From an uncultured Acidimicrobiia bacterium (GTDB lineage: Bacteria; Acidobacteriota; Terriglobia; Versatilivoradales; Versatilivoraceae), in NCBI GenBank assembly GCA_963786955.1, contig CAWBAT010000005.1, forward strand, positions 650,860 through 714,859: a DNA stretch of 64,000 nucleotides. Direction: 5' to 3'. Both the position numbers and the translations under genes were made by a program. A model generated the notes under the pieces. That model worked only from the letters and a program-made list of their open reading frames with translations. It ran no database searches and was not told where the DNA came from. Position 1 is the stretch's first letter. Each line of letters starts with the position of its first letter. Positions 6,597-54,489 of this stretch are shown here, piece by piece.

Positions 6597-6755
6597 CCAG
6601 CCGCTCTTCGCAGGGCGGCTGGAGTTTCTTGTTGTGTGAATGAAAGGTATCTTCTCACCCCGACCCCTGGAGGTGAGAAGAAATTGTAGCGGCGCTCTAT
6701 GAGCGCCGACCAAGCCGTTGAGATGAAAAGAAGACGGCGGTCACAGACCGCCGCT
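6597..6755 (+). terminator. four consecutive GC-rich stem-loops between the two decaheme genes (terminator/attenuator or REP-like)
   Basis: Hairpins at 6597-6622 (ccagccgc/gcggctgg, followed by a T-rich run), 6651-6680 (cttctcacc/ggtgagaag), 6689-6709 (gcggcgctc/gagcgccga) and 6733-6755 (acggcggtc/gaccgccgt). Confidence 0.45.
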
Positions 6756-6873
6756 ACAACCAATTCTTTCACGCCTTCCCTCTCCACTTGGTGAGGGGAA
6801 CGAATTGAGGATGACCTGAAAGTGTAACTTTACTTCATGCGTTTGTACGAGACACAAGGACGGAAAGAAGAGG

Positions 6874-9993: not shown

Positions 9994-11215
9994 ATGACGC
10001 ATGGTCCATTTGCCTGCATAGAGCGCATCCTGCACTCGAGGAGAGGTGCAAGTATGAGAGTAGCTGCTGCCATACTGATTGGCCTGTTGGGGACGCTTTC
10101 GTCCCTGGGACAAACACCTCAGAAGGTGAAGCTTTCTGATTTCAAGCTCGCTTCGAGTTGCCAGCCCTGCCACGAGGAGATTTATGCTCAGTGGCAAACC
10201 TCGACCCATTCCAAGGCATTTGTCGATCCTTTATACCAAGCAGTTGTCCGTAAAGCCGTCGAGGAAAGCAAAGGGGGCTTAACCCAATTTTGTGTTTCCT
10301 GCCACGCACCCCTGGCGACCGTCACCAGTTCCATTCCACCCGATCTGTTTCAGAAAGAGCAGATAGACCCACGGATTGAGAACGGGGTAACCTGCGAGTT
10401 CTGCCACACGATCTCTGGTAACAGAAGTGAACCTTAACAAACTCAGTCTCGGGGCTTTCCTTTTCCCAAGAGCTATCCAAACGAAAATTCTTTACGGACG
10501 GCATGCGGATGCTACCAACGATGCGCATCCGACCCAACCCTCGCCGTTTCTTGTTGTCCCGGAATTATGCGGGACCTGCCATCGATTTGGACACCCCGTT
10601 TCAGGGATGCCGGTTCAAGACACCTATCAGGAATGGAAGCAAAGTCCCTATGCCGCAAAAGGGACCCGATGTCAGGATTGCCATATGCCCTCGTATCAGG
10701 GGAAAGTGTCTGAGTCAGGCAAAGAACGTTCTGAAATTCATGCCCACATTTTTAGGGGCGGACACACGGAAATGATACGACAGGCGGCCATCGTCAATAT
10801 CACGGCTAATCGAGACTACATCGAACCCCTAGATGCGTCGGTGGTAGTCACTAATGTCGGAGCCGGCCATATGATCCCGACCGGACTCCCTGCTGTCCGT
10901 GAGATGTGGTTAGAGGTTACAGTCCAGAGCCAAGGGAAAATCTTGAGTACTCAAAAGAGGGTTTTCGGCCTGGAAGTTCTCAATGCGGAAGGGAAGCCGG
11001 CTTTGCCGTGGGAAGCCACGAAGCTCGGGAAAGACACCCGGATTGCCCCTAAGAAATCCCGTTTAGAGAAGTTTCGATTCGAGGTTTCCGGTTCGGAAAA
11101 CATTCGCATTGAAGCCAAGCTCCAGGAACAATTATTGTCCGACCAGGCCGCCAAATTTGCTGGCATTCCGCCCACTCCGCCTCAATCGATGGCAGAAACA
11201 TCGATCTCCTGCCTC
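9994..11215 (+). CDS. periplasmic multiheme (>=5 CxxCH) c-type cytochrome; frame break near 10430; 3' end uncertain
   Basis: Signal peptide, then CQPCH, CVSCH, CEFCH, CGTCH and CQDCH across ORFs 9994-10437 and 10427-11356. The table ORF reads through into the start region of the next gene. Confidence 0.6.
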
Positions 11216-11216
11216 A

Positions 11217-12079
11217 ATGAGTTCAGCTCCGGGTACCGAGGAGAATTTCCCTCTCCAACAGTTCGCGATGCGGCTTTCTTTGGCCGTGGGCTTTTTCATG
11301 CTCGTGACCAAAACCTTCGCCTACTGGCTGACTGGGTCGGCCGCAATCCTCTCTGATGCTGCAGAATCCGTCGTCCATGTCGTTGCCGTTTCCTTTGCGG
11401 CTTACAGTCTTGGCTCAGTGTCAAACCGGCGGACCGCAGCCATCTGTACGGACATGATAAGATCAGTTTCTTCTCGGCGGGGTTTGAAGGGGCGATGATC
11501 ATCATCGCCGCTTTCTATATCATCTATGTTTCAATTGAAAAATGGATTTCAGGGCTGAGGCTGGAGCACCTTGGCACGGGAACGGGCCTGACCTTATCTG
11601 GCCTCTGATCAACGGCGGCTTAGGTCTTTATCTGGTCACCATTGGGAAGAAGAAACCACTCTCTAATTCTTGAGGCCAACGGGAAACATGTCCTCACGGA
11701 TTGCTGGACAAGTCTGGGCGTTGTCGTCGGCCTGTTCCTGGCCATGATCACGGGCTGGTTGGTTCTGGATCCGATTATCGCGATCCTGGTAGCTTTAAAT
11801 ATCCTGTGGACCGGCGGTCAATTAATCCGCCGATCCATCGGTGGTTTAATGGATGAGGTGGATCCGGAAACAGAGGCAAGAATCAAGAGCATGCTTGACC
11901 CGATTACCAAACCCAAGGCATCGAATACCATAGTCTGCGACACCGGAACACGGGAAGTACGCTCTGGATCGAACTGCATATGCTTTTCCCCAAAGGGATC
12001 CTGCTGGAAAACGCTCACGCGATCGCCACCCAGATTGAAAACCGTTTAAAGACAACCTTCCCACTAAGACCGAAGTAAC
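11217..12079 (+). CDS. cation diffusion facilitator (CDF) family metal efflux transporter; multiple frame breaks
   Basis: Fragments in three frames carry CDF signatures: LSLAVGFFMLVTKTFAYWLTGSAAILSDAAESVVHVV…, …HLYGHDKISF…, the TM region ILEANGKHVLTDCWTSLGVVVGLFLAMITGWLVLDPIIAILVALNILWTGGQLI, and a C-terminal cytoplasmic domain …KGILLENAHAIATQIENRLKTTFP. Confidence 0.6.
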
Positions 12080-13404: not shown

Positions 13405-15873
13405 TTGAGTCGTCAAAGTCCACTCTCAAAACCTGACAACATGGATCCTAATCTGGTCTTTGTACGTGTTGAAGGTGATGTTTTGTCTCTGCGCCCATTC
13501 CGCATACTGGCTCACTATGCGCGGAATGCTCAGGCCTTTACAGAGCGGGCCTTCCGACTCCCTGCCGTCGACTCTCATGACTCTCCTGCGGCCGGCCTTA
13601 TCCGTTGAAAATCCTGTTCTGGGGACTCGACTGCTCTATCTGCCACTTCGCGGAATGAGCCGCGACAGACTCGATCTTCTGGGCGAAGAATATTTCAACT
13701 ATGTTTTGTCTTCCCGATTAAGAAAGGAAGGGATTCGCCATATCGAAGAATTGCACGCGATGGGCAAAGAAGATCGTATTCGTGAGCGATCAATTGGATC
13801 ATCTCATCCGACCTCTGGCACTCCACCTTAAAGCCCATTTTCTCGCTACGAATCGCCTCGAATTTCGGGATGATCTGGCAACAGGGAGGCTTCTTGAACC
13901 TGTCATCCCCGCTTTGGGGGTCACCGCCGGTTTAACCTCGACGGAACGGAAAGAGTCCACCGGCTGGAAGGCCTTCGAAAAGGAGGTGGGGCCCCAAGAA
14001 TTCTCGACGGTGAATCCTCTTTCGATTCTCCCCGTGCACCGCCGAATCCGGGCGATCCATCATCCTATGGTCCAGTTCGCAAGACGGGATTCCACACTGA
14101 AGCCGTTGTCGGTCCGTGGAAGTTTATCCGGCAAAAAGATTCTTTTAATCGGCTGCACCGGATTCATCGGGAAGGTATGGCTGACCATGCTGCTGAAGGA
14201 TTTACCCGAAATCGGCCGCGTCTTCTTGCTGATCCGGCGTCATGGAAAACGGTCGGCACTGCAACGATTTGAAAAAATTGTTGCACGAGTCTCCGACCTT
14301 CAAACCCTTTCATGAATCCTATGGCAATCAGCTGGGTGAGTTTCTCGCTGAACGGATTGAGGTTATCGAGGGAGACGTTTCAGAGCCCCACCTAGGCCTT
14401 AACCCACAAACCGCTCGGCGCCTGTATGGCGAGCTCGATCTCATTGTCAATTCAGCAGGTTTGACAGATTTCAATCCGGACCTCCGGCTGGCCCTTTCGA
14501 CCAATGCGGACAGCGTGTTGCACCTGATCGAGTTTCTCAACAATTCGCAGAAGGCAGGGCTAGTCCATATTTCCACGTGTTTTGTTAACGGTCGCACCGA
14601 CGGCCGGGTCCCTGAAGAATTGCGGCGCAATTACACACCGAAAGGCAGAGTTGAATTTGACGCCATCTCAGAATGGAAGTTTCTGCACCAGGAAATCAAA
14701 CGGGTCGAAGAAGAATCTGAAAGCCCTTCACTCAACGAACAATTCCGAACCCAGGTGGTTTCCCGTTGGAAGGATGGGGAAGAAGCAGGTCCCGGACAGA
14801 AAGGTATTCAGAACCGGATCCGCAATTTGCGGACTCGCTGGGTGCGTGATCAGTTGATCGAAATGGGAGTGCAACGAGCTCAATATTGGGGATGGCCTAA
14901 CATCTATACCTTTACCAAGAGCCTTGGAGAATCCCTCCTGGAAAACAAAGGAGCCAGGCTCCCCTTCAGTATCGCACGGCCCTCCATAGTGGAATCCTCG
15001 GTTTTTCAGCCGTTTCGAGGCTGGAATGAGGGAGTGAATACGACAGCCCCGCTTTCCTATCTGCTCGGCACCTATTTTCGTCAGCTTCCGTCCAACAAGC
15101 GAAAGCGGCTCGATGTCATACCGGTCGACTTGGTCTGCAGAGGGATAACCCTGATTGCCGCCGCGCTAGTGCAACGAGGTCATGAAAAAGTTTATCAGCT
15201 TGCAACCTCTGCGACGAACCCGGCGAACATGCGACGGACGATTGAGTTGACCGCGTTAGCCCATCGTAAGCATTATCGTTCTTTGGAGGGGCTAGAACAT
15301 TGGCTTCGGGCCCGGTTCGACGCGATTGCCGTTTCGAAAACCCGCTACAAATACGTGTCCCTGCCAAGATTAAAAGGATTGCTACAAAGCGCTGAGAGCG
15401 TCCTTTCGCTCTTGCCATTCAAAGGGGACACTCTGGTGCGAAAGCAAAGGGCCCTGGACCGAGTGCAAAAAGTCATCGGACTTTACGAGCCTTTCATCTT
15501 GGATAATGACTACTTCTTTGCCGCCGATCATATCAAGGCGCTGGCCGAGTCGCTGCCGGATGAGGAGGCTCAAACGTTTGGTTACGATGTCTCTTCGATC
15601 GATTGGTATGACTACTGGATCGATCTCCATGTCCCGGCCTTGAGACGATGGACTTATCCTTTAATCGAAGGGCGTCGCCCGGAAACAGGCTTGTTACCGC
15701 GAAATTTCAAGCTCCCGGTAAAAGAAGAAGGTCATACTTCCGAGCTTTCGGAATCACTCGACCCAGCCTCAGCTAAGCCAGCAACTTCTTTGCTTCCATC
15801 CGAAAATTTGGGCAATGCTGCCGGGGCACCGGCAGGAGATAATTTTCAGGTGGCTGACCAGGATGGTAATTGA
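13405..15873 (+). CDS. HAD-IB-like hydrolase domain apparently fused in frame to a fatty acyl-CoA/ACP reductase (NAD_binding_4 / male-sterility domain); about 3 frame breaks
   Basis: N-terminal part resembles HAD-IB (…EDRI[V]FVSDQLDHLIRPLALHLKAHFLATNRLEFRDDLATGRLLEPV). In-frame continuation with no stop leads to a Rossmann motif KKILLIGCTGFIGKV. ORF 14242-15873 holds the reductase core (…DLIVNSAGLTDFNPDLRLALSTNADSVLHLIEF…HISTCFVNGR…) and a FAR C-terminal domain. Confidence 0.55.
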
Positions 15874-17019
15874 GCATAACTATGGCTACTTTTGTTACAG
15901 GCTCAACAGGATATCTTGGGGCCCATGTTGCTTCGGAGCTGCTCTCAAAACATAACTCTAAGTTAAGCCTCCTGGTGCGAGCCAAAGATCACCGGGGGGC
16001 TGAGTTGAAACTTTGGAAGGCCATGCAATTACACCTCGGATTTTCCGAGTTTGTCCATTGGCTAGAAACAAACATCGAAATCTTTCTTGGCGACATTACT
16101 CTCCCCCGCTTTCGGGTTAGATGAAGAACAGTACGTCCAGCTGCTCAAGAAGACTGATTCGGTCCTTCATATCGCGGCATCGCTAAATCGTCGCTCCGAG
16201 AAATCCTGCCTGAACGTAAATCTTCGCGGCACGCTGGAAGTGCTTCAGTTCGCCCGGAGAGTTAGTTCCTATCATGGCCTTCGGCGTTTCAGCCACGTGA
16301 GCACAGTCGCCGTCGCGGGAGCACGAAGCAACGAAGTTGTCAAAGAGGACGAATCCATTGATTGGAACCGGTCGGATTTTGACCCGTATGCGAGAACCAA
16401 GAAGTTCAGCGAGCTGATGATTCGGGAATTGCTTCCTGATATCCCCTTGACCATCTTCCGTCCTAGCATTGTTTTGGGGGATAGCCGCTATGGCGCGACA
16501 ACCCAATTCGACATGGTGGAGGCATTCGTCTTCTTAGCGAAATTAGGGTTGCTTCCACTGCGACCTCACGATCGTTTGGACATCGTGAACGTCGATTTTG
16601 TCGCCAATTCCATTGTCTCTCTCCATCAAAAGGAGAAAACCTTATACGATACCTACCATTTATCTTCTGGCGTTCATTCCCCTACCTGCCGGCAGATTAC
16701 TGAGGCGCTCAGCGCCGCTCGACAGAGGAAGGGGCCCTTCTACCTGCCATCTCTCGCAAATCCTTTTAAGGGAATCGTGAACTGGATGGCAAATCGTCGT
16801 GGAACTTCTGTGGGGCACCTGGGATCATTACTCAAGGTTTTCTTACCTTATCTCTTATGGAACACCGTATTCGACAATCAACGAGCGGTTCAAGAAGTCG
16901 GCCAGCATCCTGTACCTTTTCCTGAGTACTGCTACCCTTTGTACAATTTCTCGGTCAAGCACAATTTTGCTTATCCTTACCAGGACTGGCCGGCGCTTGA
17001 AGGGAGTTCCACCGCATGA
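15870..17019 (+). CDS. SDR-family thioester reductase / NAD-dependent epimerase-like (second acyl reductase); one frame break near 16090-16124
   Basis: [11 protein letters not shown] Rossmann motif, then …[28 protein letters not shown]…[10 protein letters not shown]…[12 protein letters not shown] (YxxxK), which is a TE-reductase pattern. ATGA start overlaps the upstream gene. Confidence 0.6.
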
Positions 17020-18425
17020 TGGATCCATTGCTGGAGCTTTGGGTTGCGGGACTGGTAGAGCTGGCAAAGACCCGATGGATCCTGGGCTTCGGTCAGGCTT
17101 GGACCCCAGGCTCTCCTCTCCGACTCCTCTTTGCAGGATACAATGGAAACCGTAACACCGGCGCCGATGTCCGGGTCGAGGAAATGATCCGTCAAATTCG
17201 CCGAGTTCTGGGGGATGAGCATATTGACCTCAGTGTTCTCTCGCATAACCTAGAACTTTCGAAAGGTTATTTCCCCACCGTCCAACAGGTTAAGCTTCCG
17301 GATGTGTTTCCGCCCTTCTTATTTCGAGAAATACCCCGCTATCACGGCGTCATCACCTGTGAGGGATCGATGTTTAAGAGCAAGTTTGCCAATGCCCTAA
17401 CGACGATGATGATCGGGGCCCTGGGCATTGCCACGGCCGAAAATAAAGTCTCGATCGGGTACGGCGCAGAAGCCGGATCGATGGATCGCCTGCTGCAGAG
17501 CATGTGTCGCCGCTATTGCGCCAGTTCGCTGGTTGTGACACGCAACGAAGAGTCTCAAAAAGTGTTGGGAGATTTAGGAATCCAAACGGAATTGGGAACG
17601 GATACGGCGTGGACATTTGAACCGCACGGGTTAGATTATGGGAGAAAAGTTTTACTCGATGCCGGCTGGGACGGTCGTACCCCCATCTTGGGTTTGTGTC
17701 CGATCAATCCTTTCTGGTGGCCGGTAAAACCATCAATTCTGAAACTGCTGATGAATAAGTCGGCAGGCTTTTATCGGGATAGCCATTATCGCTCGATTTA
17801 TTTCCATAACGATGGAAAAGAAGTCAACGCAGCCTTCTTCCGTTATCTTGAAGCATTCGTCGCTGGGATCCAAGAGTTTCGAAAAGAGCACGCCGTCTTC
17901 CCCGTATTGATCGGGATGGAGGCATTAGATCGCCGTGCTTGCGAAATCATGGGACAGAAGCTTGATCGAGTCCCTCTATTCATTTCAGATCAATATGACA
18001 TGTACCAATTGGTCAGTATTCTGCGCAATTGCCACCTTTTGCTCTCTTCCCGTTATCACGGTATCGTGACATGCATGCCCACACTGGTTGCATCAGCCGG
18101 AGTGACCATGGATGAGCGTATTCGCAACCTCATGCGTGAAAGAGGTCACACGGATCTGTTACTGGAGGTAGATGATCCGGACCTTTCATCAAAACTGGTG
18201 ATCGTGTTGCGAAGACTCATCAAGAATTCTGAAGAAATCCGACAGGGGATTGGAAAAACCGTGGTCAGGAATCTGAAGATGATGTCGAGGATGGGTATTT
18301 ATCTTCAGCAAAACGTCCAAGAACGATATCCGGAATTCCCCGTCCGGACAGGACACTATTCCTGGGAAGACTATCTGCCATCCTTGAGCCCAACTCTGCA
18401 GAAACTGATAGAAGAGTTTGAGTAA
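17016..18425 (+). CDS. polysaccharide pyruvyl transferase family-like protein (function uncertain)
   Basis: 469 aa. N-terminal [16 protein letters not shown] and C-terminal …[30 protein letters not shown] resemble PS_pyruv_trans (CsaB-like) motifs. Start overlaps the preceding stop (ATGA). Confidence 0.4.
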
Positions 18426-18790
18426 AGAACTGGCGTGAGCTGTAGCTGCGGTCCTCGAGCATCAGATAACTGACAAAGTCATGGGATCCGGCAGCCATAA
18501 ACTGTCGCCTCCGTCGGTTTATCCCGAATTCCGAAGTTGGGCGAGGGGGATTTCTATCTATTTACTGATTTACATGAGACTTGCAAGACGCTCAGGAAAG
18601 GGAAAATGTATACTGATGGCCTGCGGATTCAGGTGGAACGCGCGCTCCGCCGCGCGTTCATTGAGCGTGCCCGGGGGGACAGCGGTCCCACGCGCACGCT
18701 CCACCTTGCGACGCTCACGCACTTTCGGAATTCGAGTTTATCCGAGCTTGAAAGGAACGATTAAAGATTGCAACAGGCAAAGACGCAGCG

Positions 18791-20494
18791 ATGAATTTCT
18801 TAGAGACTATTTTCGAGAACCTGTCCAGCGCTCCACAGAAGCCAATCTTGCAGGAAATACGCCGAGGCCACCTCGTTTCGTGCACGGGTGAAGAGTTGCT
18901 GGGCTACATTCAGCAGGCTCGCTACGCCTTGAGGGAAGCCGGATTACACGCAGGCGACCGATGTGCATTATTGGCACCCAATAGCATTCAGTGGGTTGCC
19001 GTTGATCTGGCCATCATGGCGGAGGGAGGAATCGTTGTTCCTCTCTATTCGAGGCAGTCCCCTTCCGAACTGGTTCAGATGATGAAAGATTCTTCTCCGC
19101 GTTTCCTTTGTTGCGCGAACGTGGAACTGCGAGACGCCATCTCTGCAGTCTGGGCCGAGGTCCCTGCCACTCTCTTGTTTGAAAAAATTTTCTCAACCGT
19201 TCTTTCCCCCTCCACTCCGGATCTAAAGAAAGACTCAACTGCTGAGACAAAATACCTGGCTGGCTTGACTGATTCGTCATGGGTAACGATCATCTATACT
19301 TCGGGAACTTCGGGAGATTCGAAGGGAGTTGTTCTGACGGCAGGAAACATCACGTTCATGCTGCAGCGCACCACGGGGCGACTTGTTGAACTCATGCAAA
19401 ACGTCAAGAAGAGTAGTGATGACCGGGTCTTTCATTACCTTCCTTTCTGTTTTGCAGGATCCTGGATTCTTTTACTCTCAAACCTCTACCGAAACAACGC
19501 TCTGATCCTTTCCACGGATCTCAACAAGCTGACTGAAGAACTTCAGATCGCCCAACCCCACTATTTTTTAAATGTTCCTGCGCTGTTAGAACGGATACGC
19601 AACGGCATACAAGATCAGCTTCGCAAGAGAGGGAAAGTGGTCCACCGTTTATTTGCGAGAGCACAAAAGGCCTGGCTCGCTCAGAACCACGGCGAGGCTG
19701 GAATCGTAGATTCGCTCGGACTCTCACTCACACGGTTCCTGATTTTTCCCAAAATCAAACAAACGATCAGCCCAAACCTTCGAGCACTAATCTGTGGCTC
19801 TGCTTCCCTCTCTGAAGAGACTCAACTCTTTTTCCAGATGATCGGTATTCCTGTTTTACAGGTTTATGGGCTCACAGAAACCACGGGAATCTGTACGATG
19901 GACGATGTTCATGAAGTCAGCGCAGGGCGAGTCGGCCCCGCCATTCCCGGGATTGAAATGAAGCTGGGCGCAAATGATGAGATTCTCGTACGGGGTCCCA
20001 ACGTGTTTCCCGGCTATTGGAACCGACCTGAAGCAACCGCCGAAGTGATCAAAGATGGATGGTTTCATACAGGGGATCAGGGTGAGGTTGATGGGAACGG
20101 AAATTGGAAGATTGTTGGACGATTGAAAAATTTGATCATTCCGACTTCAGGTCACAATGTCAGCCCGGAACCTCTTGAACAAAAACTGCTCAGCTTCCTC
20201 CCGGAGGCCGAATATGCGATGGTCTGCGGGAACGGCCGGAAGTTTCTTTTGGCCATCATCAGTGGGAATGCAACGAGGGAAAGAGTTGAGGTAGCCCTTC
20301 AAGCCCTCAATCAAGAATTGCCGCATTACAAGCAAGTTCGGAAATTCTACCTGACCCCAGAACCTTTTAGCGCCGAAAACGGACTGTTGACCACGAACCG
20401 AAAGATCAAACGCGCAGCCATCGAATCACTCTACAGGAGCGCCATCGAAGAGCTATACCGGGATCCGGCAACACAGGTTAAGGACCGGCCCTAA
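18791..20494 (+). CDS. long-chain fatty-acid--CoA ligase (AMP-dependent synthetase/ligase)
   Basis: 567 aa with the AMP-binding motif IIYTSGTSGDSKGV, plus …YGLTETTG… and …GWFHTGDQGEVDGNGNWKIVGRLKN…. Confidence 0.85.
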   Translation: MNFLETIFENLSSAPQKPILQEIRRGHLVSCTGEELLGYIQQARYALREAGLHAGDRCALLAPNSIQWVAVDLAIMAEGGIVVPLYSRQSPSELVQMMKDSSPRFLCCANVELRDAISAVWAEVPATLLFEKIFSTVLSPSTPDLKKDSTAETKYLAGLTDSSWVTIIYTSGTSGDSKGVVLTAGNITFMLQRTTGRLVELMQNVKKSSDDRVFHYLPFCFAGSWILLLSNLYRNNALILSTDLNKLTEELQIAQPHYFLNVPALLERIRNGIQDQLRKRGKVVHRLFARAQKAWLAQNHGEAGIVDSLGLSLTRFLIFPKIKQTISPNLRALICGSASLSEETQLFFQMIGIPVLQVYGLTETTGICTMDDVHEVSAGRVGPAIPGIEMKLGANDEILVRGPNVFPGYWNRPEATAEVIKDGWFHTGDQGEVDGNGNWKIVGRLKNLIIPTSGHNVSPEPLEQKLLSFLPEAEYAMVCGNGRKFLLAIISGNATRERVEVALQALNQELPHYKQVRKFYLTPEPFSAENGLLTTNRKIKRAAIESLYRSAIEELYRDPATQVKDRP

Positions 20495-20499
20495 AGCCC

Positions 20500-21180
20500 A
20501 TGATTCCATTGCCCCTAGCCAGAAGACTTGTTCGAGCATTGATGACCTGGGTGGTTTTGATGGCACTGATGCTTTCAGCCTGGGGATGGAATCGGCTCGC
20601 CGGATTCGGGGCGGAATGGCCAAGACTCCTCTTGCCTTTTGTATGGCTCATTTTCTCACTTTACGGAGCGTGGAGGGACACGCAAACCAGCAGTTCGGAG
20701 GGGAAGAATGAGGTGCGCAACCACCGGCGAATGCTCCTGTTTTTTCTACCGGTCTTTGTCTTGTGGTTTTTCTACCTTCCTTATTCGGATCAAAGAGATG
20801 GCCCCGCCTTTTCTTCCACTCCCTTACGCTGGGTTGGGCTGGTTTTTTTTGCAATCGCTCTGTTGCTCCGGATTGAAGCAATCCGAGCGCAAGGCAAGCA
20901 ATTCAGTTATGCTGTGACGATTCAAGACGGCCACCAACTGGCACTTCAAGGCCCGTACCGATGGATCCGTCACCCGGCTTACCTGGGAGTTATCGGGATG
21001 TTTTGCGGACTCTCTTGGGTATTCGCAAGATTTGAGCTGGGGCTCCTGATGGCACTTTTGGTATGGTTGTGGATGGAATCGCGCATCCGGGATGAAGAGA
21101 AATTGTTGCTTGAGGAATTTGGAAGAGATTACGCTCATTATCGCCAGAAAACGGCAAAGCTTGTACCCTTTGTCTACTGA
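20500..21180 (+). CDS. isoprenylcysteine carboxyl methyltransferase / phospholipid methyltransferase family membrane protein
   Basis: 226 aa, multi-TM. C-terminal signature …GPYRWIRHPAYLGVIGMFCGLSWVF…EEKLLLEEFGRDYAHYRQKTAKLVP is the ICMT/PEMT family motif. Starts 6 nt after the ligase stop. Confidence 0.7.
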   Translation: MIPLPLARRLVRALMTWVVLMALMLSAWGWNRLAGFGAEWPRLLLPFVWLIFSLYGAWRDTQTSSSEGKNEVRNHRRMLLFFLPVFVLWFFYLPYSDQRDGPAFSSTPLRWVGLVFFAIALLLRIEAIRAQGKQFSYAVTIQDGHQLALQGPYRWIRHPAYLGVIGMFCGLSWVFARFELGLLMALLVWLWMESRIRDEEKLLLEEFGRDYAHYRQKTAKLVPFVY

Positions 21181-21280
21181 CGGGTAGTAGAATTCCTAGG
21201 ACTAAGCATTTCGAGAAAGTCGGGTCAGGATTTTGCCCCAACAGGCGTCAACAAAAATCTTGGGATAGAAATCACACTCA

Positions 21281-22360
21281 TATGGATTCTTTCAAAGGCA
21301 ATGCAATCTCATGGGGTTTGACAGAAGGCGTCGTGGAACTGGTCCTTCATCGCGAACCTTGTAATGAAATAGGCTCGGTGACACTGGCCGAGTTGGAACG
21401 TTTTGCCGATGCCCTCGAGAATTCTGGTCAGAAGCCCAGGCCCTGATTCTCTATAGCCGACTGGCTTCAGGGTTTTGCGCCGGAGCAGACTTGCGTGAGC
21501 TTTTCCGAGGAATTCAGCCGCTGAAAGCCGAGGATCGTTCAAACCGCGTGCGCGATTTTCTACTGCGGATTCATCGTGTTTTTAATGTGATCGACAGTGC
21601 GCCGATCACGACGATCGCGGCGGTTCACGGAGTGGTTTTTGGAGGCGGATTCGAGCTGGCCTTAACCTGCGATATGATCGTGGCAGACCGGACAGGCCGT
21701 TTTTGCTTCCCGGAGTTGCGATTGGGTCTCGTACCCGGATTTGGGGGGATTCCCCGAATGAAGCGGGATATTGGTAACGGCTTGGTGAGGGATCTTCTGC
21801 TGACGGGCCGGAGCATTAACGCGAATAAGGCATCCGCCGCAGGTTTGGTCAGTCAGGTCGTTGCTCCAGGAGAAGCCTTTCGGGTCGCGCGATCCGTCGC
21901 TTTGCAAGCAACCAAATTCGATCGCCGGGCAGCCCAAGTCGCTAAGGAATTCATCAAGCCGATTCCATACGCAGAGTTGCAGGAAGAAATCCGACTCTTT
22001 TGTGAACTGATGGGTCGGCCGGCCGTCGAAGAGGCATTCGCAAGTTTATTGAAAGCACTGACGCACAACCGTATCTCCCATAAATATCGAAAATATTACA
22101 AGGATCGATTCCCTTTATGCCTCATCTCGAGCAAACCCTTGCATGATTTGTTAAAGTTGGCCTCCGAGCATTTCCAGGTCCCCGTCAGCGAACTCAACCC
22201 CGACGAAGATTTTTTCAAGAAACTCAAGATCAATAGTCTCCAAGCCCTAGACCTATTGACCAAATTAGAACACCACTTTAACGTGGAACTCCCTGACTAT
22301 GAATTGCAGGGCGTAACAGATTTCAGAACCCTGGCGGAAAAAATCCAAGCGCGACTGTGA
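21281..22360 (+). CDS. enoyl-CoA hydratase/isomerase (crotonase) fused to a C-terminal acyl-carrier-protein-like domain; frame break near 21440
   Basis: Crotonase motifs (…AAVHGVVFGGGFELALTCDMIVAD…, LRLGLVPGFGG). The last roughly 80 aa, …DEDFFKKLKINSLQALDLLTKLEHHFNVELP, resemble a phosphopantetheine attachment site (Ser in an NSL context). Confidence 0.6.
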
Positions 22361-24083
22361 AACACACGGCCCCCGATTTATCTCCGTTCGCTTCTCTGGG
22401 CGAGGCCCTGCACATGGCTGCGCAGAAGTGGGACCACCACTTGGCTCTCATTGAAGCCGACCGTGAGCGCGAGAACTGCCGCCTGACCTACTCCCAATTT
22501 GAACAAGCCGCCCTTCCTATTGTTCAGGCCCTTCAAGAAGCCGGATTTGAATCCGAGCATCGAGCAGCGATAATCATGTCCAATCAGTCCAAATGGTTGA
22601 TTGCCGCCTATAGCCTTTTTTATGCTGGGGGCGTGCTGGTCCCCCTGGATTTCAAGTTGACACCTGCGGAACATTTGCAACTTCTGGCCCACGCCTCGGT
22701 AAGGTATTGATCGTGGAATTTCCTTTCTGGCTGGCAATAACTCAGACTCCGGCCTATAAGGAATTCGCCCTGTCCCCTAGTCCTCGTGACCGAGGCCCCC
22801 AAGACTGTGAAATTAGTGGGTGCACAGCGTTGGGAAGAGCGCACTCTTGCCGGAGCAAAGCCCCGCTTCGTACCAAGAACACGGCAAGACCTGGCCGGTA
22901 TCGTCTACTCCTCGGGTACGGGTGGGCAACCCAAAGGATGCATGTTGACTCACGACAATTATTTGGAGCAGTGCCAGTCATTGATGACCTGGTATCCGTT
23001 TTGGCCCGGAGTTCGTTATCTCAGCATCCTTCCAACAAACCATGCCATTGATTTCATGGTCGGATTTCTTGGACCTTTTTTTTGCGGAGCCACGGTTGTT
23101 CATCTCCGAACATTACGTCCCGAGTATCTCAAGGAGGCATTCCCACGCTATCGAATCACTTACGCCAGTGTTGTCCCCATGGTGTTAAAAGCCTTCGAAT
23201 CGGGTTTGAAGAACAAGTTCAAAGAATTCCCACCAAGCCGGCAATGGGTTCTCAGTTGTCTGATGCGCATCAACCGATGGTTAACGCGTAACCGCCCACG
23301 ACCGTGGATCAGCCGGCGGTTACTGCCCAATATTCATCAAGCCTTCGGCGGTGAACTGTTAGCCCTGATTACTGGGGGCGCCTTCGCAGAGCCTTCGACT
23401 TTGCAGTTTTTTTATGATCTCGGCATTCCCGTCGCCAACGGATACGGGTTGACGGAGGCCGGAACTGCTGTCACTGTCAACGATTTGAAACCCTTTCGAG
23501 CGGACACGGTGGGAAAGCCGTTGCCCGGGAGTTGAATTGAAGATTCTCGATGCGGATGCAGATGGGGTCGGACAAGTTGCGGTGCGAAGCAAGACTGTCA
23601 TGAGAGGCTACTTGAATGATCCTGAAATGACTGCTGAAGTGCTTGTCAAGGGGTGGTTGTTGACCGGCGACCTCGGACGAGTGGATGCAACCGGCCATCT
23701 CCTGCTGTTTGGGCGTTTGAAGAATATGATTGTGACCGAAGGGAGGGAAAAACATATACCCCGAGGATATTGAGTCTGCGTTTCAAGGCTTACCCGTTAA
23801 AGAGTTTTGCGTCTTTGCGGTCAATTATGTCTGGAAAAAACAGACCTTGGTCGGAGAACAGCTGATGCTCGTCGTTCAACTGGAACCAGGAGATGAGCTA
23901 ACTCCAGCCTTGATCGAGGAGCTGCAGACTCGCAACCTTCGGCTGGCAGATTTCAAGCGGGTTTCAGGCTATCTTCTTTATGACGAAGATTTCCCGCGTA
24001 CCGCTTCCCTGAAAATTAAGCGCAGGATTCTGGCTGAACGGATAGCCACAAAGCTGAACCGGACTGATGTGAGAACGCTATGA
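22357..24083 (+). CDS. second AMP-dependent acyl-CoA synthetase/ligase; at least 3 frame breaks
   Basis: GTG start overlapping the upstream stop. Motifs [23 protein letters not shown], …[13 protein letters not shown]… and …[25 protein letters not shown]… are spread across ORFs 22357-22710, 22786-23535, 23537-23773 and 23847-24083. Confidence 0.6.
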
Positions 24084-24097
24084 TAATTCGTGCGTTA

Positions 24098-24996
24098 TGA
24101 AACGTTACCTGGCTATCGTGAACCCTGCCGCCGGAGGAGGACGCTGCGGCAAGCTGGCATCCGAGACACTCGGGACAAATACGTGCGGGCGGGGTGGCGG
24201 TTGAAGTAGCTGGGACCCAACGCGCCGGAGATGCGACCGCCTTGGCAAGGGAAGGCTACGAACGGGGCTTCCGTCACTTCCTTGCCGTGGGAGGAGACGG
24301 GACAAGCTTCGAGATCGTGAACGGGTTGTTCCCGCGCGAGAACCAGACGGACAGGGTCGCGTTGGGATTTCTCCCCTTGGGGACCGGAAATTCCTTTCTC
24401 CGCGACTTCGCCGAAGCGGGTTTACCACACGCTATAGAGGCCATAATCAAGCAAAAAATAGACCGTGCGATGTCCTTTGTCTCAAACACGGGGGAGGCCA
24501 ATTGCATTACATCAATCTTGTGAGCTTCGGATTCACGGCTGAGGCAGGCACTTTGACAAACAGCCGGTTCAAGCCGTTGGGGGAGGTTGGCTACTTATTG
24601 GCCACTTTAATCTGCTGGATGAAACTCCATTACCCTACCTTTCCACTGCGCGTGGATGATGCCTCGGAGATTGATCACCGGCCTTGCACCTATTTAACCT
24701 TTTCAAATAGCCGCTATACCGGGGGGAAATTCATGATTGCTCCCTTCGCAAACACGGCAGACGGGTTGATTGAGCTGACACGAGTCGGAACCTTAAAGCG
24801 ATTAGATTTTGCTCGGACTTTTCCCAAAATATTTTCCGGAACTCACATGAGTCATCCGCTGATCTCACATGTGGGCGCCCACCGGGTCGATTTCCAAATT
24901 TCGCAGCCGATCGATGTCATGATTGACGGTGAAGTGGTGGCTTGCTTACCGGAGTCTATTGTCGTCTTGCCGCAAGCTCTCGATGTGATGGTATGA
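24098..24996 (+). CDS. diacylglycerol-kinase catalytic-domain lipid kinase (YegS/DagK-like); frame break near 24180
   Basis: [15 protein letters not shown]… then …[20 protein letters not shown]…[12 protein letters not shown]… (DAGK_cat) and a C-terminal beta-sandwich domain in ORF 24502-24996. Confidence 0.65.
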
Positions 24997-25790
24997 AGCA
25001 ATTTTATCTGATCATCCGCAGTGTTTTTCTCTGGATTCTCAGTGCCATTCATTTTTTTACTGTTTGTACCGGCTTGGTCATTCTGGGTATTTTCTTCGAC
25101 CCTCGCACCAATGATTGGCCTCAACGATGGTTCTTTCGGAATATCCTCCGCGTGGCTGGCGTGGGATTTCAAGTGAAGCGCTCACCCGGTTTCGACCCTC
25201 AACGCACGAGCATTTTTGTTTGCAACCACATTAATATTTTTGACGCATTCGTAATCTATTCGGCGATTCCGCAATTCGTTCGAGGTCTAGAACTGGAGTC
25301 TCACTTCAAGATCCCGGCCTATGGATGGATGATGAAACGATTTGGGAATATACCTGTAACGAAAGCTGGAGGGCCCTCACAATTCAAGAAAACTCTGGAA
25401 CACGTTAGGTCTCATATTGCGAACGGCATCAGCGTCATTATCTTTGCCGAAGGAACAAGAACACGGGATGGACGGGTTGGCCCGTTCCAGAAAGGTGGCT
25501 TTGTTATGGCCCACCACATTGGCGCGCCGATCGTTCCCATGAGCATCTGTGGGTCATTTGAATTCAACCGCAAGGGCAGCTGGATGCTACACCCCTCCAC
25601 AATCAACGTCTATCTGCACGACACGATCGAGACAACAGGGATCAAGAAAGAAGAATTAAACGAATTGGTAAAAGAGGTTCACCGAATTGTCTCTGAACCG
25701 GTCGATGCCTCTTTGAAAGTCCAGTCCGGCGCCCATCGATCAAACAAAGAGAACACGACAGGGGGACACAACTACAACTTAAGCGCTTGA
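24993..25790 (+). CDS. 1-acyl-sn-glycerol-3-phosphate acyltransferase (PlsC/LPLAT family)
   Basis: N-terminal TM, then the HX4D motif (FVCNHINIFD), …FGNIPV… and …VIIFAEGTRTRDGRVGPFQKGGF…, which are LPLAT blocks I-IV. Start taken at MKQFYLII. Confidence 0.8.
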   Translation: MKQFYLIIRSVFLWILSAIHFFTVCTGLVILGIFFDPRTNDWPQRWFFRNILRVAGVGFQVKRSPGFDPQRTSIFVCNHINIFDAFVIYSAIPQFVRGLELESHFKIPAYGWMMKRFGNIPVTKAGGPSQFKKTLEHVRSHIANGISVIIFAEGTRTRDGRVGPFQKGGFVMAHHIGAPIVPMSICGSFEFNRKGSWMLHPSTINVYLHDTIETTGIKKEELNELVKEVHRIVSEPVDASLKVQSGAHRSNKENTTGGHNYNLSA

Positions 25791-26211
25791 GACCGCTCAA
25801 GAGGGTTGGAATCGTTCTTCGAGCGGTAATTCACTGGTCACAGTTCTTCTCTCCTCTAATCCGCATGTAGATTCAATTCACTCCGGCACTATCGTATTAG
25901 TCCCACGCGGCCTCCTTGTGATGCAGGCGTCCCACCTGCAGCTCGCGATTGGACATTTCGGGAGAGGATAGGGCGCGACCGCTGGGGCGGCGCGCCGCGG
26001 ACGGCCTATGAGTTCAGCCCGCGGCCAGGAGGTTCTGTCGGCGCGCGGTCACTGTTGTGCTCCTCAGTTGTGGGTCGCGAATCTATCGGTCTCTTCACTT
26101 CGCCTGCTCAAAGTCTGTCTACTGCATAGTCTCGCCCACAATACGGTCATCCGCGTGAGACAGTCAGGTGCATTGAAAATGCCGTCGTCGATCTTTGGCT
26201 CCACTCACCTG

Positions 26212-27402
26212 TCAGAAAAGAATCTTGATCACCCGCGTGACCAACTCCTCAAGCGAAAAGACCGTCAGAGCCAACGGCAGAAGAGGCGCGGCGGTCACGG
26301 CGGCGAGTCTTGCGATGTCCTTAAGTCCGAAGGGCACGAGGCGCATCTCTTCAACAATCGAATAACTGTTTCCGAGATCGGCCAGCGACTGAATGTCGCC
26401 AGTGCCCAGAAGTTCATCGCCTTGTGCCGCGTTCCCCCGAACCCACTTGTCCTCAAATCCCTGGACGTAGCGGTTAGCGAGCAGTCCGTATGCGTCCAAT
26501 CCCCTCTGTTTCGCCCGCGCGAGCTGCGGCGTAAACATGACGAGTGGGCCGAGAAGGAACAGAACGAAGAAACCCACCAAGCTCACGGCTTCCATCTTGA
26601 AGGACAGCAAGCTCTCACCCTCGTACAGGATCCGACTGGCGATCATACCCGCCAGCAACAGGCCTTGGGCGAAAAGGATCGGTCCGAAGGCGTAGGTGCT
26701 CTTACCCAGGAAGGCTAGTCCGCCGGCTCGGTCCGGGTGGGTGGAGATGAGGCACAAGTTCAGCCTCGAGACCTGCCACAGGAACCGAAACCAGATAAGG
26801 AGCCGCAGATACCAGCGGAGCAAGATGAACTGAAAAATTGGAATACTGACGAAGGCATACCAGTACCCGGCAGGCGTGAGATGCAAATGGGTGCCTTGCG
26901 GCATCGCATACCAGGTTGCTGCACCGATGGCAATCTGGCTCCGCCAGAGCCATTGCCCGACCGTCCAGACTAGAATCACCAGCGCCACTTCCATGGGGGC
27001 CGAGTTGCGCACACGCTCGGCCGAGTGAATGGCGGCGTGGAATTTCGGCAGATCTTCGGAGACGACAATGTCCCGCTCCACGAACCGTGACACCACGGGG
27101 CGGACGCGCAAATGGACGATCAGCTCGGCGGCAATCAGCACCGGTAACGCGACCAGGAATCGAACCTGCACCTCGATGTCGTGTAAAAATGGGACCTTGA
27201 TGGCTCCGCCCAGCGCATGCCCGCCAATCAGCGACAATACCAATAGCGGGAGCCACGCGAAAAGCGAGATAAACAGAATTCGGCGGTGGAGCAACTCCAG
27301 TGCGTCTCCGGACACATGTGTCCGCCGGAACAGTTGATACAGAGGACCGCCCAAGCATAGCGAAAAGTCAGGCGATTCTTGGAGAGGCGTGGTTTTGTTC
27401 AT
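26212..27402 (-). CDS. polytopic membrane protein of unknown function (first gene of the high-GC block)
   Basis: 396 aa with about 8 predicted TM helices and no recognisable catalytic motif. GC is about 62%, against about 50% for flanking DNA. Confidence 0.5.
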   Translation of the reverse strand: MNKTTPLQESPDFSLCLGGPLYQLFRRTHVSGDALELLHRRILFISLFAWLPLLVLSLIGGHALGGAIKVPFLHDIEVQVRFLVALPVLIAAELIVHLRVRPVVSRFVERDIVVSEDLPKFHAAIHSAERVRNSAPMEVALVILVWTVGQWLWRSQIAIGAATWYAMPQGTHLHLTPAGYWYAFVSIPIFQFILLRWYLRLLIWFRFLWQVSRLNLCLISTHPDRAGGLAFLGKSTYAFGPILFAQGLLLAGMIASRILYEGESLLSFKMEAVSLVGFFVLFLLGPLVMFTPQLARAKQRGLDAYGLLANRYVQGFEDKWVRGNAAQGDELLGTGDIQSLADLGNSYSIVEEMRLVPFGLKDIARLAAVTAAPLLPLALTVFSLEELVTRVIKILF

Positions 27403-27474
27403 GGTGCAGGATCCTTAGAACTCAAGCCCCGGCCGCAGCAGGGTGCCTTGCGCGGTGGTCTTCCCAGATAAAAA

Positions 27475-27702
27475 TCATGTCATTCTTTGCTTGCTGAGCG
27501 GTACTGGTGTCCCAACACCCCACTGGCGGGCGGCCAACTTCAGCGCCAGTCCAGAGACCAGCGCGGCGGCGAGGTTGGTTTTCGTTTTCATGGTCGTGTC
27601 CTTTCTTTGTTTATCGGTTGCCGCGCCCGCCGCCTTGCGACGGCGGGCGCAGTTCTTATTACACTTACTGTGCGGCGGCGATGGTGGCTTTGCCTTCTTC
27701 AA
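27475..27702 (-). CDS. signal-peptide-like mini-ORF (MKTKT…) sharing a leader/RBS context with the sulfatase genes
   Basis: 75 aa beginning [21 protein letters not shown]. The upstream context gaaaggacacgaccATGaaaac parallels the sulfatase starts at 30076 and 33654. Could be a remnant N-terminus or a real small secreted peptide. Confidence 0.25.
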
Positions 27703-30076: not shown

Positions 30077-30248
30077 GGTTGTTTTCCTTTCATTGGTTGC
30101 TTGGTTGACCCGCGGCAGCGTCAGCGAGCACGGCGGCGAGGAATTGGGGAGTTTTCATTTTCATAGTTTTGTTCTTTCTTTGGTTGATTGGTTCGCTGGT
30201 TAACGCGCGAGCCGTCCACTCGGACAGCCCGCGTGTTTCACAATCGAA

Positions 30249-31883: not shown

Positions 31884-32019
31884 GTTGCTTCCTCCTGATC
31901 ATATGAACCGCAGGGCATAGTCCTTGCTGCGCCGTATGCCTTACCGTCACCCACTACCATGAGGTGGTTTTTTCGCCGCGGGCAGCCCTTGCGGACCGCC
32001 CGCCATGTATGCGTCCGTG

Positions 32020-34135: not shown

Positions 34136-35872
34136 TCACCCCTGCGTGGTTTTTGGAACACGCTTCCGGTCTCCCATTCTCGACTGAACTTCTCTATGGA
34201 AGAGGGCCCGAAACAAGTCAAATTGAGCTCTGTAGAGCTTCCACTTCTTCCGCTGAAAGAAAGCCAGGCTGGAGCATACCAGCGCCCTGGCTAATCGGAA
34301 TGAGATCTCTCCATTGACATTCAGCAACCAGGGATCCTCCCACTTCAGAGGTCCCACCCCCTTCTTACCCAGAGGGGTGAGTAATACAACCTTCCGGATG
34401 GTCTTTTCCGGAAGAAATCGATAATTGTGGTTCCACCCTTGCCCACTCAGCCCCAAGGGCCCGGCACCCCATGGCAACGACGTTGCGAAGGCAACACCCG
34501 GGTAAATATTGATGCCGACAACTCCATGTCGGAGTTCTGTGGCAAATCGTTTCACTTCCGGATTAGAGGGATCAGAGGTGAAGACGGAGATGCCTAAATC
34601 ACCGGCCAATGCAGAGGAATTGGCAAACTCTAAGGCCTTCTCGAGGAAGGAATCATCAGGCAGAGTCAACAGAGCTGCCACCGGACCGAAGGCCTCTTCG
34701 CGAAGAAAAAGAGCATCCCTGTCAATACCTGCAATCAGTGTCACTGGGAATCCTCTGTCTTTAGCTTTCGGGTGAATTGGGATGACCTCGGCTCCTGCCA
34801 GATGCAGTTCTTCAAGCTTCGCCTGCAGACGATCGGCTGACGGATGATCAATAAGTAAACGGTCTCCGTGATGTTCTCCTTCCCGGCGGGCGGCCAAAGA
34901 AATCTCTTCACAAAGCACTGCCTTAAAAGATTGGCAGTAAGAGTCGGGTATGACGATGAGCTGAAAACTGACACAATGTTGACCGTTGTTTGCCAGCATT
35001 CCATAAGCTGCTTGGCGTGCCACCTGCCGCATTCCCTCCCGCTGCGAAAAGACGTCTGGAAGAACGAGAGCTGCGGTAACGCCTCCCAATTCCGATGTGA
35101 CCCTTTTGGAGCCAGCAGCTCGCGTGATAGCACTTCCAGTCTGAACGCTCCCCGTGACGTGGATATGATCAAACTCAGGCTGTTCCACGAGCCAGGCGCC
35201 CACCTCGGGTCCGCCATATACAAAACTCAAGGCATTCGAGTCAACAAATGGGGCAAAAATTTTCTCCAGGTAAGGCCCACTAAAGCCAACCTTCTCAGAA
35301 ACCTTGGCAATAACTCGAAGTCCCCTATAGCAGAGCAAGTGGACTATATCCAGCGCCCCGATGCTGACCAGATTAAAAGGAAGGAGGCAGAGTGCAATAC
35401 CCTTACTTGGCTTTGCTTCATCTGTCGGAGCCTCTTTAGGCTGCAACGTGAGGTGATCCTCGGGTCGATTAAACACGACATATCCGGTGACACCCGGAAG
35501 CAGCATCTTCTCCAGTCGATTTGCGGGAAGAATGCGAGAAGCAGGAAAGCCGCCAAAGTCGGTCAGCGAGGGAGAGACCGCCTGCTTCAAATATTGTTCC
35601 AAGGTTTGAGCTGGATTGGCACTCTTCAGAGATTCAGAAATGGAGAGAATTCCCCAGACAGACGGAAACACAGTCTCAAAATAGACCTCCGCAGGAGTGA
35701 TCCCCATTCGTTCGGCCGTCTCATATGCTAAAGGGTCACCGTAAAAAAGGAATAGTTCGGCGACTCTCTCAAGCAAAGAGGAAATCTCACCAACGGACTT
35801 GAGACGCCAGGCAGATGAAGCTTCCGCGTCTACTAGAATTTTGAGGGTGTTATTCAGAGAAGAATGGCTCAT
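34136..35872 (-). CDS. aldehyde dehydrogenase superfamily protein (divergent; N-terminal extension)
   Basis: 578 aa with ELGG (SELGGVTAAL) and a catalytic-Cys context NGQHCVSFQ, plus …EEAFGPVAAL…. The annotated start abuts the tRNA 3' end (6 nt), so the true start may be internal. Confidence 0.55.
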   Translation of the reverse strand: MSHSSLNNTLKILVDAEASSAWRLKSVGEISSLLERVAELFLFYGDPLAYETAERMGITPAEVYFETVFPSVWGILSISESLKSANPAQTLEQYLKQAVSPSLTDFGGFPASRILPANRLEKMLLPGVTGYVVFNRPEDHLTLQPKEAPTDEAKPSKGIALCLLPFNLVSIGALDIVHLLCYRGLRVIAKVSEKVGFSGPYLEKIFAPFVDSNALSFVYGGPEVGAWLVEQPEFDHIHVTGSVQTGSAITRAAGSKRVTSELGGVTAALVLPDVFSQREGMRQVARQAAYGMLANNGQHCVSFQLIVIPDSYCQSFKAVLCEEISLAARREGEHHGDRLLIDHPSADRLQAKLEELHLAGAEVIPIHPKAKDRGFPVTLIAGIDRDALFLREEAFGPVAALLTLPDDSFLEKALEFANSSALAGDLGISVFTSDPSNPEVKRFATELRHGVVGINIYPGVAFATSLPWGAGPLGLSGQGWNHNYRFLPEKTIRKVVLLTPLGKKGVGPLKWEDPWLLNVNGEISFRLARALVCSSLAFFQRKKWKLYRAQFDLFRALFHREVQSRMGDRKRVPKTTQG

Positions 35873-54480: not shown

Positions 54481-54489
54481 ATCCTAATT

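Follow-up and report, generated by a model that had tools for sequence, protein, structure and literature searches.

Gene content of the lipid operon

We analyzed a 64,000-nucleotide stretch of contig CAWBAT010000005.1 (GenBank assembly GCA_963786955.1, positions 650,860 to 714,859 of the forward strand), hereafter the window, from an uncultured bacterium placed by GTDB in the Acidobacteriota (Terriglobia, Versatilivoradales, Versatilivoraceae). The subject is a lipid operon of ten genes at positions 13441-25790 of the window, all on the + strand. Domains were assigned with Pfam and NCBIfam, and the gene boundaries of the window copy were transferred by orthology from a related contig, L002. 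The domain content and gene order given in the original prediction, which had been made from the letters of the window alone, were borne out by both profile libraries. That prediction had counted eleven genes; ten were found:

13441..15873 (+): fusion of a HAD-like domain and a fatty acyl reductase (FAR); NAD_binding_4 and Sterile domains; 811 amino acids (aa) in intact relatives; 1-bp insertions at 13570, 13769, and 14286
15882..17019 (+): stand-alone thioester reductase, RED2; NAD_binding_4; 378 aa in relatives; 1-bp insertion at 16112
17016..18425 (+): PYR, a putative member of the polysaccharide pyruvyl transferase family with a predicted GT-B fold; 469 aa; frame intact
18791..20494 (+): acyl-CoA ligase ACL1 (FadD11-like); AMP-binding and AMP-binding_C_3; 567 aa; frame intact
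20500..21180 (+): ICMT/PEMT-family membrane methyltransferase; ICMT E 8e-16 and PEMT E 1e-12 (Pfam); 226 aa; frame intact
21282..22083 (+): crotonase-family enoyl-thioester hydratase; ECH_1 E 2.8e-32; 267 aa in relatives; 1-bp deletions at 21432 and 22039
22117..22360 (+): dedicated acyl carrier protein (ACP); PP-binding E 3e-10; 80 aa in relatives; 1-bp insertion at 22142
22357..24083 (+): second adenylating ligase, ACL2; AMP-binding on two fragments; 574 aa in relatives; indels at 22701, 22772, 23524, and 23739
24097..24996 (+): lipid kinase of the YegS/DgkB/AGK family; DAGK_cat and YegS_C; 299 aa in relatives; compensating indels at 24175 and 24454
24993..25790 (+): PlsC/AGPAT-family lysophosphatidate-type acyltransferase; PF01553 E 2.5e-20; 265 aa; frame intact

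The genes are packed as tightly as had been predicted. RED2/PYR, ACP/ACL2, and kinase/PlsC overlap by 4 bp each, and the remaining intergenic gaps measure 5-101 bp with the exception of the 365 bp between PYR and ACL1. This spacer has no repeat within the window and no counterpart in relatives. A promoter and terminator scan of the window gave signals at or below the shuffle expectation. No fab or pls gene is interleaved in the window, in agreement with the original prediction.

Conservation and variable content

A marker scan with the best-conserved PYR peptides as queries covered GTDB genomes at one per species and returned at least 594 confirmed matching stretches in these species representatives. 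We compared 84 loci by tblastn with the ten proteins. The nine-gene order of HAD/FAR, RED2, PYR, ACL1, crotonase, ACP, ACL2, kinase, and PlsC, on a single strand, was found in essentially every sufficiently long locus. Recurrence of the same nine-gene order is far beyond chance. Protein identity to the orthologues was 47-82% in unrelated lineages and reached 93% in close relatives. PYR is the most conserved gene of the cluster, with 60-89% identity across two classes in the top 84 loci. When all flanking open reading frames (ORFs) of the 84 loci were clustered, no further conserved neighbor emerged, and the functional unit is therefore taken to be the nine genes.

The best 80 scan matches were metagenome-assembled genomes (MAGs) of Acidobacteriota, from the Terriglobia (among them Terriglobales, Acidiferrales, and Versatilivoradales) and the Blastocatellia, with four bins labelled otherwise. 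These four (L005, L012, L047, and L083) carry the labels Acidimicrobiia, Clostridia, Heliomicrobium, and Xenobia, and the identities of their proteins lie inside the acidobacterial range. L005 is the GTDB-scan locus closest to the window (PYR identity 75%). Mis-binning or mislabelling is the likely reason for these four labels, rather than interphylum transfer. The carriers are, with few exceptions, uncultured Acidobacteriota and come from soil, peat, and groundwater. Among the best 360 PYR homologues (queries: PYR of the window, of Terriglobales, and of Blastocatellia) there was no isolate, all being MAGs or metagenomes, which would explain how the cluster escaped lipid-genome correlation studies.

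The methyltransferase gene is of a different kind. It was present in 2 of the 84 loci, namely the window and L005. At 7272-7532 of L002 lies a remnant that kept the start and stop codons and lost ∼410 bp internally, leaving an 86-aa ORF. The ICMT gene is a lineage-specific accessory gene, in L002 caught in the middle of its loss. It had been predicted as a member of the cluster, which is true of the window; as a core component it was rejected on the count of loci. In genomes of the Versatilivorator clade its slot is filled by an unrelated 174-180 aa ORF without a Pfam match. More generally, the slots ACL1-crotonase and crotonase-ACP take unrelated insertions (peptidase S9, PIN, TMEM175-like, AAA). 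About ten loci, all of them Blastocatellia versions, have a 333-aa FabH-type 3-ketoacyl-ACP synthase III (KAS III) between crotonase and ACP (L016 14791-15795; L023 16703-17704; L043 15269-16270; L032 8936-9937; about six more Blastocatellia loci). A myo-inositol-1-phosphate synthase gene was seen ∼3-5 kb upstream of the cluster in the Versatilivorator clade (L001 420-1736; L090-L092 2325-3641) and is not conserved in other lineages.

Broken reading frames in the window copy

Between 13.3 and 26 kb, the stop-free segments of the + strand switch frame repeatedly. Four intact references were available for this region: L002 (83% DNA identity), L003, L004, and L001 (a 5.77-Mb genome). Alignment to L002 scored 13 single-base frame-breaking indels at the sites listed above, and 6 of the 10 genes lack an intact ORF. 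In the intact relatives the region consists of nine or ten clean genes. The first gene is a single ORF of 778-811 aa in L001-L004 (either 811 or 778 aa) with HAD, NAD_binding_4, and Sterile domains; the reductase measures 378-386 aa, PYR 469-499, ACL1 566-567, crotonase 267, ACP 80, ACL2 573-574, kinase 299, and acyltransferase 256 aa. Three pairs of indels in the window copy compensate each other (22039/22142, 22701/22772, and 24175/24454). ACL2 of the window was recovered by tblastn across three frames.

One of these pairs accounts for a crotonase with a C-terminal ACP-like domain in the original prediction. The deletion at 22039 and the insertion at 22142 together read through the crotonase stop and create an apparent crotonase-ACP fusion. 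The TAA stop itself is retained at the orthologous position (22081-22083). Crotonase and ACP are separate genes in all loci with called genes (L001, L002, and L090-L092), and the tblastn matches to the two proteins are likewise separate in the remaining loci. The fusion protein was rejected as an indel artefact.

The 13 indels are most likely consensus errors of a long-read metagenome assembly, not gene decay. Four observations lead to this preference. No nonsense substitution occurs in ∼3350 aligned cluster codons, vs. 13 indels. Frame-corrected dN/dS against L002 is 0.07-0.13 for every cluster gene, with no difference between broken and intact genes. The unrelated genes upstream (multihaem cytochrome, cation efflux, HlyIII; 9.2-13.3 kb) are hit harder, with ∼20 further indels relative to L003 and L004. 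Finally, the source contig of 1.76 Mb is typical of long-read metagenome assemblies. Under the opposite explanation the cluster in this genome is a decaying pseudogene array, its indels are real and its product is not made. We regard this as very unlikely; the three compensating pairs speak against it, as do the four observations above. It draws on the 6 frame-broken genes, on a true nonsense change close upstream (TGG to TAG at 12720 in the HlyIII-family gene, the single one seen), and on the position of the indels, which are densest between 9 and 26 kb; long intact ORFs are kept by the sulfatases at 27-34 kb and by the nuo genes at 44-50 kb, and this unevenness counts against assembly error. 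A narrower version, pseudogenisation confined to the cluster, was rejected because the neighboring genes carry denser indels. With assembly error as the most likely source of the frameshifts, a functional copy of the cluster is probably present in the organism. The window copy is unsuitable as a template, its reading frames being corrupted.

As a separate observation, indels are dense at 9.2-13.3 kb (∼20 in 4 kb) and occur at ∼1 per kb in the lipid cluster, and the ORFs of the sulfatases (27600-33700) and of nuoD/F/G/H (44200-49800) are long and unbroken, so the rate of error or decay is strongly uneven along the contig. Further along, RHS-repeat ORFs at 51001-56413 (+) overlap in different frames (51001-52548/52527-53027 and 54727-55995/55949-56413); they are probably parts of a single large RHS/toxin gene that additional indels have broken up.

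Family assignments and catalytic motifs

The NCBIfam search gave zero equivalog-level matches for the cluster proteins. In the first gene, the FAR part matches NAD_binding_4 (E 7e-38) and the FAR "Sterile" domain (E 4.6e-9), and 68 of 69 orthologues retain GxTGFxG and YxxTK. The HAD match is weak (PF12710/TIGR01490), and the NCBIfam alignment spans profile positions 64-148 of 202. At HAD motif I, for which DxDGT is expected, most lineages have WRVEGSL, the window clade has FVRVEGN, and the Versatilivorator clade has FVSADGG; the nucleophile Asp is missing in every lineage and is replaced by Arg or Ser. The HAD-like domain is degenerate, and phosphatase activity is unlikely. Of the predicted fusion of a HAD-IB-like hydrolase with a FAR, the fusion was upheld and the hydrolase was not; a catalytic HAD phosphatase was rejected for lack of the nucleophile.

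RED2 matches NAD_binding_4 (E 3.8e-31) and the thioester-reductase domain TIGR01746 (146 bits vs. an NCBIfam cut-off of 213). It is assigned as a carrier-protein-dependent thioester reductase, called divergent because its score lies below the cut-off. The nearest solved structures are MxaA (3e-27), a polyketide synthase (PKS) R domain, a Mycobacterium nonribosomal peptide R domain, carboxylic acid reductase (CAR), and AusA. No sugar-nucleotide epimerase appeared among its solved-structure matches at E<1e-5. RED2 also matches Epimerase PF01370 (E 8.5e-9); thioester reductases fit better. The TGxxGxxG NAD(P)-binding motif and YxxxK are kept in 74-75 of 75 orthologues. The grouping of RED2 with R domains agrees with the prediction that the reductases belong with FAR and thioester reductases and not with sugar-nucleotide epimerases. 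One match in the search for RED2 relatives, P0262, is a 796-aa thioester-reductase/AMP-binding fusion; it is encoded directly downstream of a radical SAM gene (L087 6891-10391, L088 6275-9775) on metagenome contigs that are unrelated to the cluster.

PYR scored 35.2 bits against PF04230 (PS_pyruv_trans; Pfam cut-off 25.3) and 50.9 bits against the NCBIfam CsaB equivalog (cut-off 213). A profile search of PDB sequences with PYR found nothing at E<=1, and no record was retrieved for the PYR gene of the window itself. ACL1 matches AMP-binding (E 4e-55) and AMP-binding_C_3, with every NCBIfam match below cut-off; among solved structures, the fatty-acyl, feruloyl, and malonyl-CoA synthetases come nearest to it. 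The best solved match of ACL2 is the adenylation domain of the nonribosomal peptide synthetase (NRPS) LgrA. Because of this match, and because its start overlaps the ACP stop, ACL2 probably loads the ACP. The ACP attachment motif [DN]S[LIVM] is kept in 61 of 62 orthologues. The crotonase has the short-chain hydratases AUH, EchA8, and crotonase as nearest solved structures. Its catalytic Glu motifs GGGxEL and PExxLG are kept in all 67 orthologues, in agreement with its alignment to EchA8 and AUH, and it is accordingly predicted to be a true hydratase/dehydratase.

The kinase matches DAGK_cat (E 1e-18) and YegS_C (E 5e-27) in Pfam, in two frames. It alone among the cluster proteins reaches an NCBIfam subfamily cut-off, and barely so (TIGR00147, 119.1 bits vs. 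118.65). GGDGT is kept in 52/52 kinase orthologues and HX4D in 44/44 of PlsC, which scored 72.7 bits for the AGP_acyltrn domain (NCBIfam). Human AGK, a member of the same kinase family, phosphorylates monoradylglycerols, and AGK followed by AGPAT is a precedent for the kinase/PlsC pairing. By this analogy the pair suggests conversion of a radyl-glycerol to a phosphatidic-acid analogue. The gene set, its collinearity, the catalytic motifs, the family assignments, and purifying selection are established here.

Proposed pathway and alternative products

In Myxococcus, alkyl ether lipids need ElbD and probably ElbE, products of the elb operon, according to the account in PMC9131029. We propose, tentatively and by analogy, that the acidobacterial cluster is a counterpart of elb and makes alkyl (ether) glycerolipid precursors, which would then be phosphorylated and acylated; this is a plausible reading that may well prove wrong. 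An ether-glycerolipid product is favored on three grounds: the parallel to elb, the presence of a FAR, and the phylum's still unmet need for a pathway of this kind. The synthesis of ether-bound lipids in Acidobacteria (iso-diabolic-acid monoethers and branched glycerol dialkyl glycerol tetraethers, known as brGDGTs, which serve as palaeoclimate proxies) has been called unresolved; most acidobacterial ether-lipid producers lack Ger, none has Mss, and reports of elb are confined to some subdivision 4 (SD4) genomes (PMC13159169; PMC11868695).

The substrates, the order of steps, and the ether chemistry are what we infer from the enzyme families. The structure of the operon points to two arms of activation and reduction, which would lead into an entry module. 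In one arm, ACL1 would make acyl-CoA, and the FAR domain would reduce it to a fatty alcohol. In the other, ACL2 would charge the dedicated ACP with an acyl group, the crotonase would work on the tethered enoyl or hydroxyacyl thioester, and RED2 would free an aldehyde or alcohol. The two arms would be joined to a C3 backbone via an alkyl (ether) linkage. PYR is the leading candidate for the ether step because it is strictly conserved and translationally coupled to the reductase. The YegS/AGK-type kinase would phosphorylate the resulting radyl-glycerol, and PlsC would acylate it to an alkyl-acyl phosphatidic-acid analogue for phospholipid synthesis.

A more speculative scheme, to which we give hardly any credence, would build the C3 ether backbone de novo from phosphoenolpyruvate (PEP) and not from dihydroxyacetone phosphate (DHAP) or glycerol-3-phosphate. 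The FAR would supply a fatty alcohol, and PYR would move the enolpyruvyl group of PEP onto it to yield a 2-alkoxyacrylate. ACL2 would place this product on the ACP, and the crotonase would hydrate the 2-alkoxyacryloyl thioester to 2-O-alkylglyceroyl-ACP. The thioester reductase would then free 2-O-alkylglycerol for phosphorylation by the kinase and acylation by PlsC. The scheme is our own construction from enzyme families and would give a chemically sensible role to every strictly conserved gene. If true, it would be an ether-lipid route without AGPS or a PlsA/Ger-type enzyme, and it predicts sn-2-type alkyl ethers; the acidobacterial monoethers known from the literature are 1-O-alkyl, contrary to that prediction.

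Several points weigh against the elb-like ether-glycerolipid reading in general. All carriers found are uncultured. The cluster contains no AGPS, PlsA/Ger, or other known ether-forming enzyme, and its crotonase, ACL2, and PYR play no part in any known ether-lipid route. The HAD-like domain is without its nucleophile. The likeness to ElbA-E was drawn from the domain descriptions in PMC9131029. Among the 150 best representatives of RED2 in a library of 1.8 billion proteins, no ElbD-sized protein was found; they are stand-alone proteins of ∼380 aa. Distant RED2 homologues (P0138, P0150, P0134, and P0144) occur in unrelated gene contexts without the cluster.

The absence of known ether-forming enzymes suits a reductive lipid pathway with a non-ether product, such as glycerol-free or diol-type lipids, fatty alcohols, or wax-type lipids. 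In the diol variant, the crotonase would provide 3-hydroxyacyl-ACP, from which the reductase would form a long-chain 1,3-diol, a substrate for phosphorylation by the kinase and for acylation by PlsC. A crotonase with both catalytic Glu residues would thereby gain a natural role, the order of reductase, kinase, and acyltransferase would suit any lipid with two hydroxyls, and the FabH-type KAS III between crotonase and ACP in Blastocatellia points to acyl-chain chemistry on the ACP. We consider such a product unlikely, because the strictly conserved PYR, the second ligase, and the FAR would be left without a role, and it would be a coincidence that all parts of the elb domain inventory, the HAD-like protein and an extra short-chain dehydrogenase/reductase (SDR) among them, have a match. 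To our knowledge, lipids of this kind have not been reported from Acidobacteria.

Another reading is that the cluster supplies the lipid portion (anchor or tail) of an envelope molecule that is pyruvylated or glycosylated, or that it makes a small lipid natural product. PYR would then act on the head group, and ligase, ACP, and reductase would form an NRPS-independent reductive-release module. PYR does exceed the Pfam PS_pyruv_trans threshold, a reductase with a ligase and an ACP is a common motif of biosynthetic clusters, and sulfatases and sugar-nucleotide genes are located nearby in the window. However, no other glycosyltransferase, flippase, polymerase, or sugar-nucleotide gene adjoins the cluster in a conserved manner across the 84 loci, and the kinase/PlsC pair indicates phospholipid assembly. 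The identity of PYR across two classes suits core membrane biology better than a variable surface molecule or secondary metabolite. An envelope or natural-product role is distinctly unlikely on this evidence.

The nine-gene operon is a concrete, clonable candidate for the acidobacterial ether-lipid pathway, with intact orthologues at hand (for example in OX638355.1 around 4.912-4.924 Mb and in the L001 and L090 genomes), and it makes the ether-lipid/brGDGT question directly testable, the link to ether lipids being inferential. Should the cluster make no ether lipid, it would still merit study as a conserved membrane-lipid operon that is uncharacterised and occurs in a phylum ranking among the most abundant in soil.

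Neighboring features in the window

Features flanking the operon in the window include an aldehyde dehydrogenase (ALDH) gene and cytochrome genes:

34136..35872 (-): ALDH, 578 aa; PF00171 E 3.5e-38
1336-2127 (+): NapC/NirT-like cytochrome
4762-6576 (+): MtrC/MtrF-like outer-membrane cytochrome
6874-7878 (+): decahaem-type cytochrome

In the Versatilivorator clade (L001, L007-L009, and L011), an ALDH gene with 49-51% identity directly follows PlsC in convergent orientation, and an Aldedh gene of 546 aa is located at the same post-PlsC position in L090-L092. In the window, a high-GC block at 26-34 kb parts PlsC from the ALDH gene. The ALDH is an uncertain member of the cluster, perhaps a lineage-specific partner. 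The block (26000-34000) has a GC content of 58-61% vs. ∼50% elsewhere and holds sulfatases at 27665-30076 (-) and 32020-33654 (-) and a 544-aa HAD-like protein at 30249-31883 (-). It looks like an insertion or island between PlsC and ALDH. Immediately beside the ALDH gene lies a tRNA-Sec at 35878-35974 (-), detected by ARAGORN and, with 68.7 bits, as the sole match of an Rfam scan of the window. The multihaem c-type cytochromes form a run at 1336-7878 and 10427-11356 (+), a sign that this acidobacterium may transfer electrons extracellularly or anaerobically.

Comparison with known systems

As described in PMC9131029, which summarises Lorenzen et al. (2014), ElbD of M. xanthus (ABF88003.1/Q1DC43) combines FAR1-like, acyl-CoA-synthetase, ACP, and AGPAT-like acyltransferase domains. 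The same account describes ElbB as HAD-like, places ElbE and ElbA in the NAD-dependent epimerase/dehydratase family, and leaves ElbC without an assigned function. The original prediction had recognised the four activities of ElbD here as separate genes beside a lipid kinase. We found all of them: a FAR1-like reductase, an AMP-binding acyl-activating enzyme, an ACP, and an AGPAT-like acyltransferase are common to both systems. The resemblance goes further than had been claimed, because by description the HAD-like domain and the extra extended-SDR protein found here may correspond in type to ElbB and to the NAD-epimerase-family proteins ElbE and ElbA. On these descriptions the elb-type enzyme inventory would be complete in the cluster, with four further conserved enzymes in addition. 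Neither system contains AGPS. The differences are as clear. The ElbD domains are fused in Myxococcus and are separate genes here in all 84 loci; the HAD-like module is fused to the FAR here and lacks its nucleophile, and there are two ligases. PYR, the crotonase, ACL2, and the YegS-type kinase are without a described elb counterpart (the sources describe ElbC only as a protein of unassigned function).

Closer in taxonomy are the elb-like clusters reported from Acidobacteriota SD4/SD6 and Poribacteria, which include "split elbD" variants (Sinninghe Damste 2018, as related in 10.64898/2026.06.23.733905) and, in the account of the same sponge-symbiont preprint (2026), often adjoin diacylglycerol (DAG) kinases, acyltransferases, and, in some clusters, KAS III genes. 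They share with the present cluster the phylum, the partial splitting of ElbD functions, and the DAG kinase, acyltransferase, and KAS III neighbors (compare the FabH insert in Blastocatellia). However, they keep ElbD whole or in two parts (reductase and adenylation), whereas no multidomain ElbD-type protein occurs here. PYR and crotonase genes are not mentioned in the accounts consulted. We found no published description of this gene combination; the acidobacterial cblaster hits of 10.64898/2026.06.23.733905 may include the cluster.

Other systems resemble the cluster in single aspects. The peroxisomal-type route (FAR1, GNPAT, AGPS, and acyl/alkyl-DHAP reductase; MXAN_1674-1676) likewise uses a FAR for the fatty alcohol, an acyltransferase, and an extended-SDR reductase. 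Its AGPS, a FAD-linked oxidase, is missing both from the cluster and from the rest of the 64-kb window, and in its place the cluster has an ACP, a crotonase, a kinase, and the putative GT-B protein PYR. ACL2, ACP, and RED2 together resemble the adenylation-thiolation-reductase (A-T-R) module of CAR and of NRPS/PKS terminal R domains, with MxaA as the closest solved relative of RED2; here, however, each part is a protein of its own, encoded together with a kinase and PlsC in a lipid operon, and does not belong to a megasynthase. The PlsA/PlsR plasmalogen synthase and Ger of anaerobes address the same problem of bacterial ether lipids with an unrelated enzyme family, and nothing similar is present in the cluster. 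As judged from domain content, the resemblance to elb is real, and the cluster is not an elb member in the strict sense, the defining fusion being absent. We describe it as an elb-like system that is extended and has been fully disassembled.

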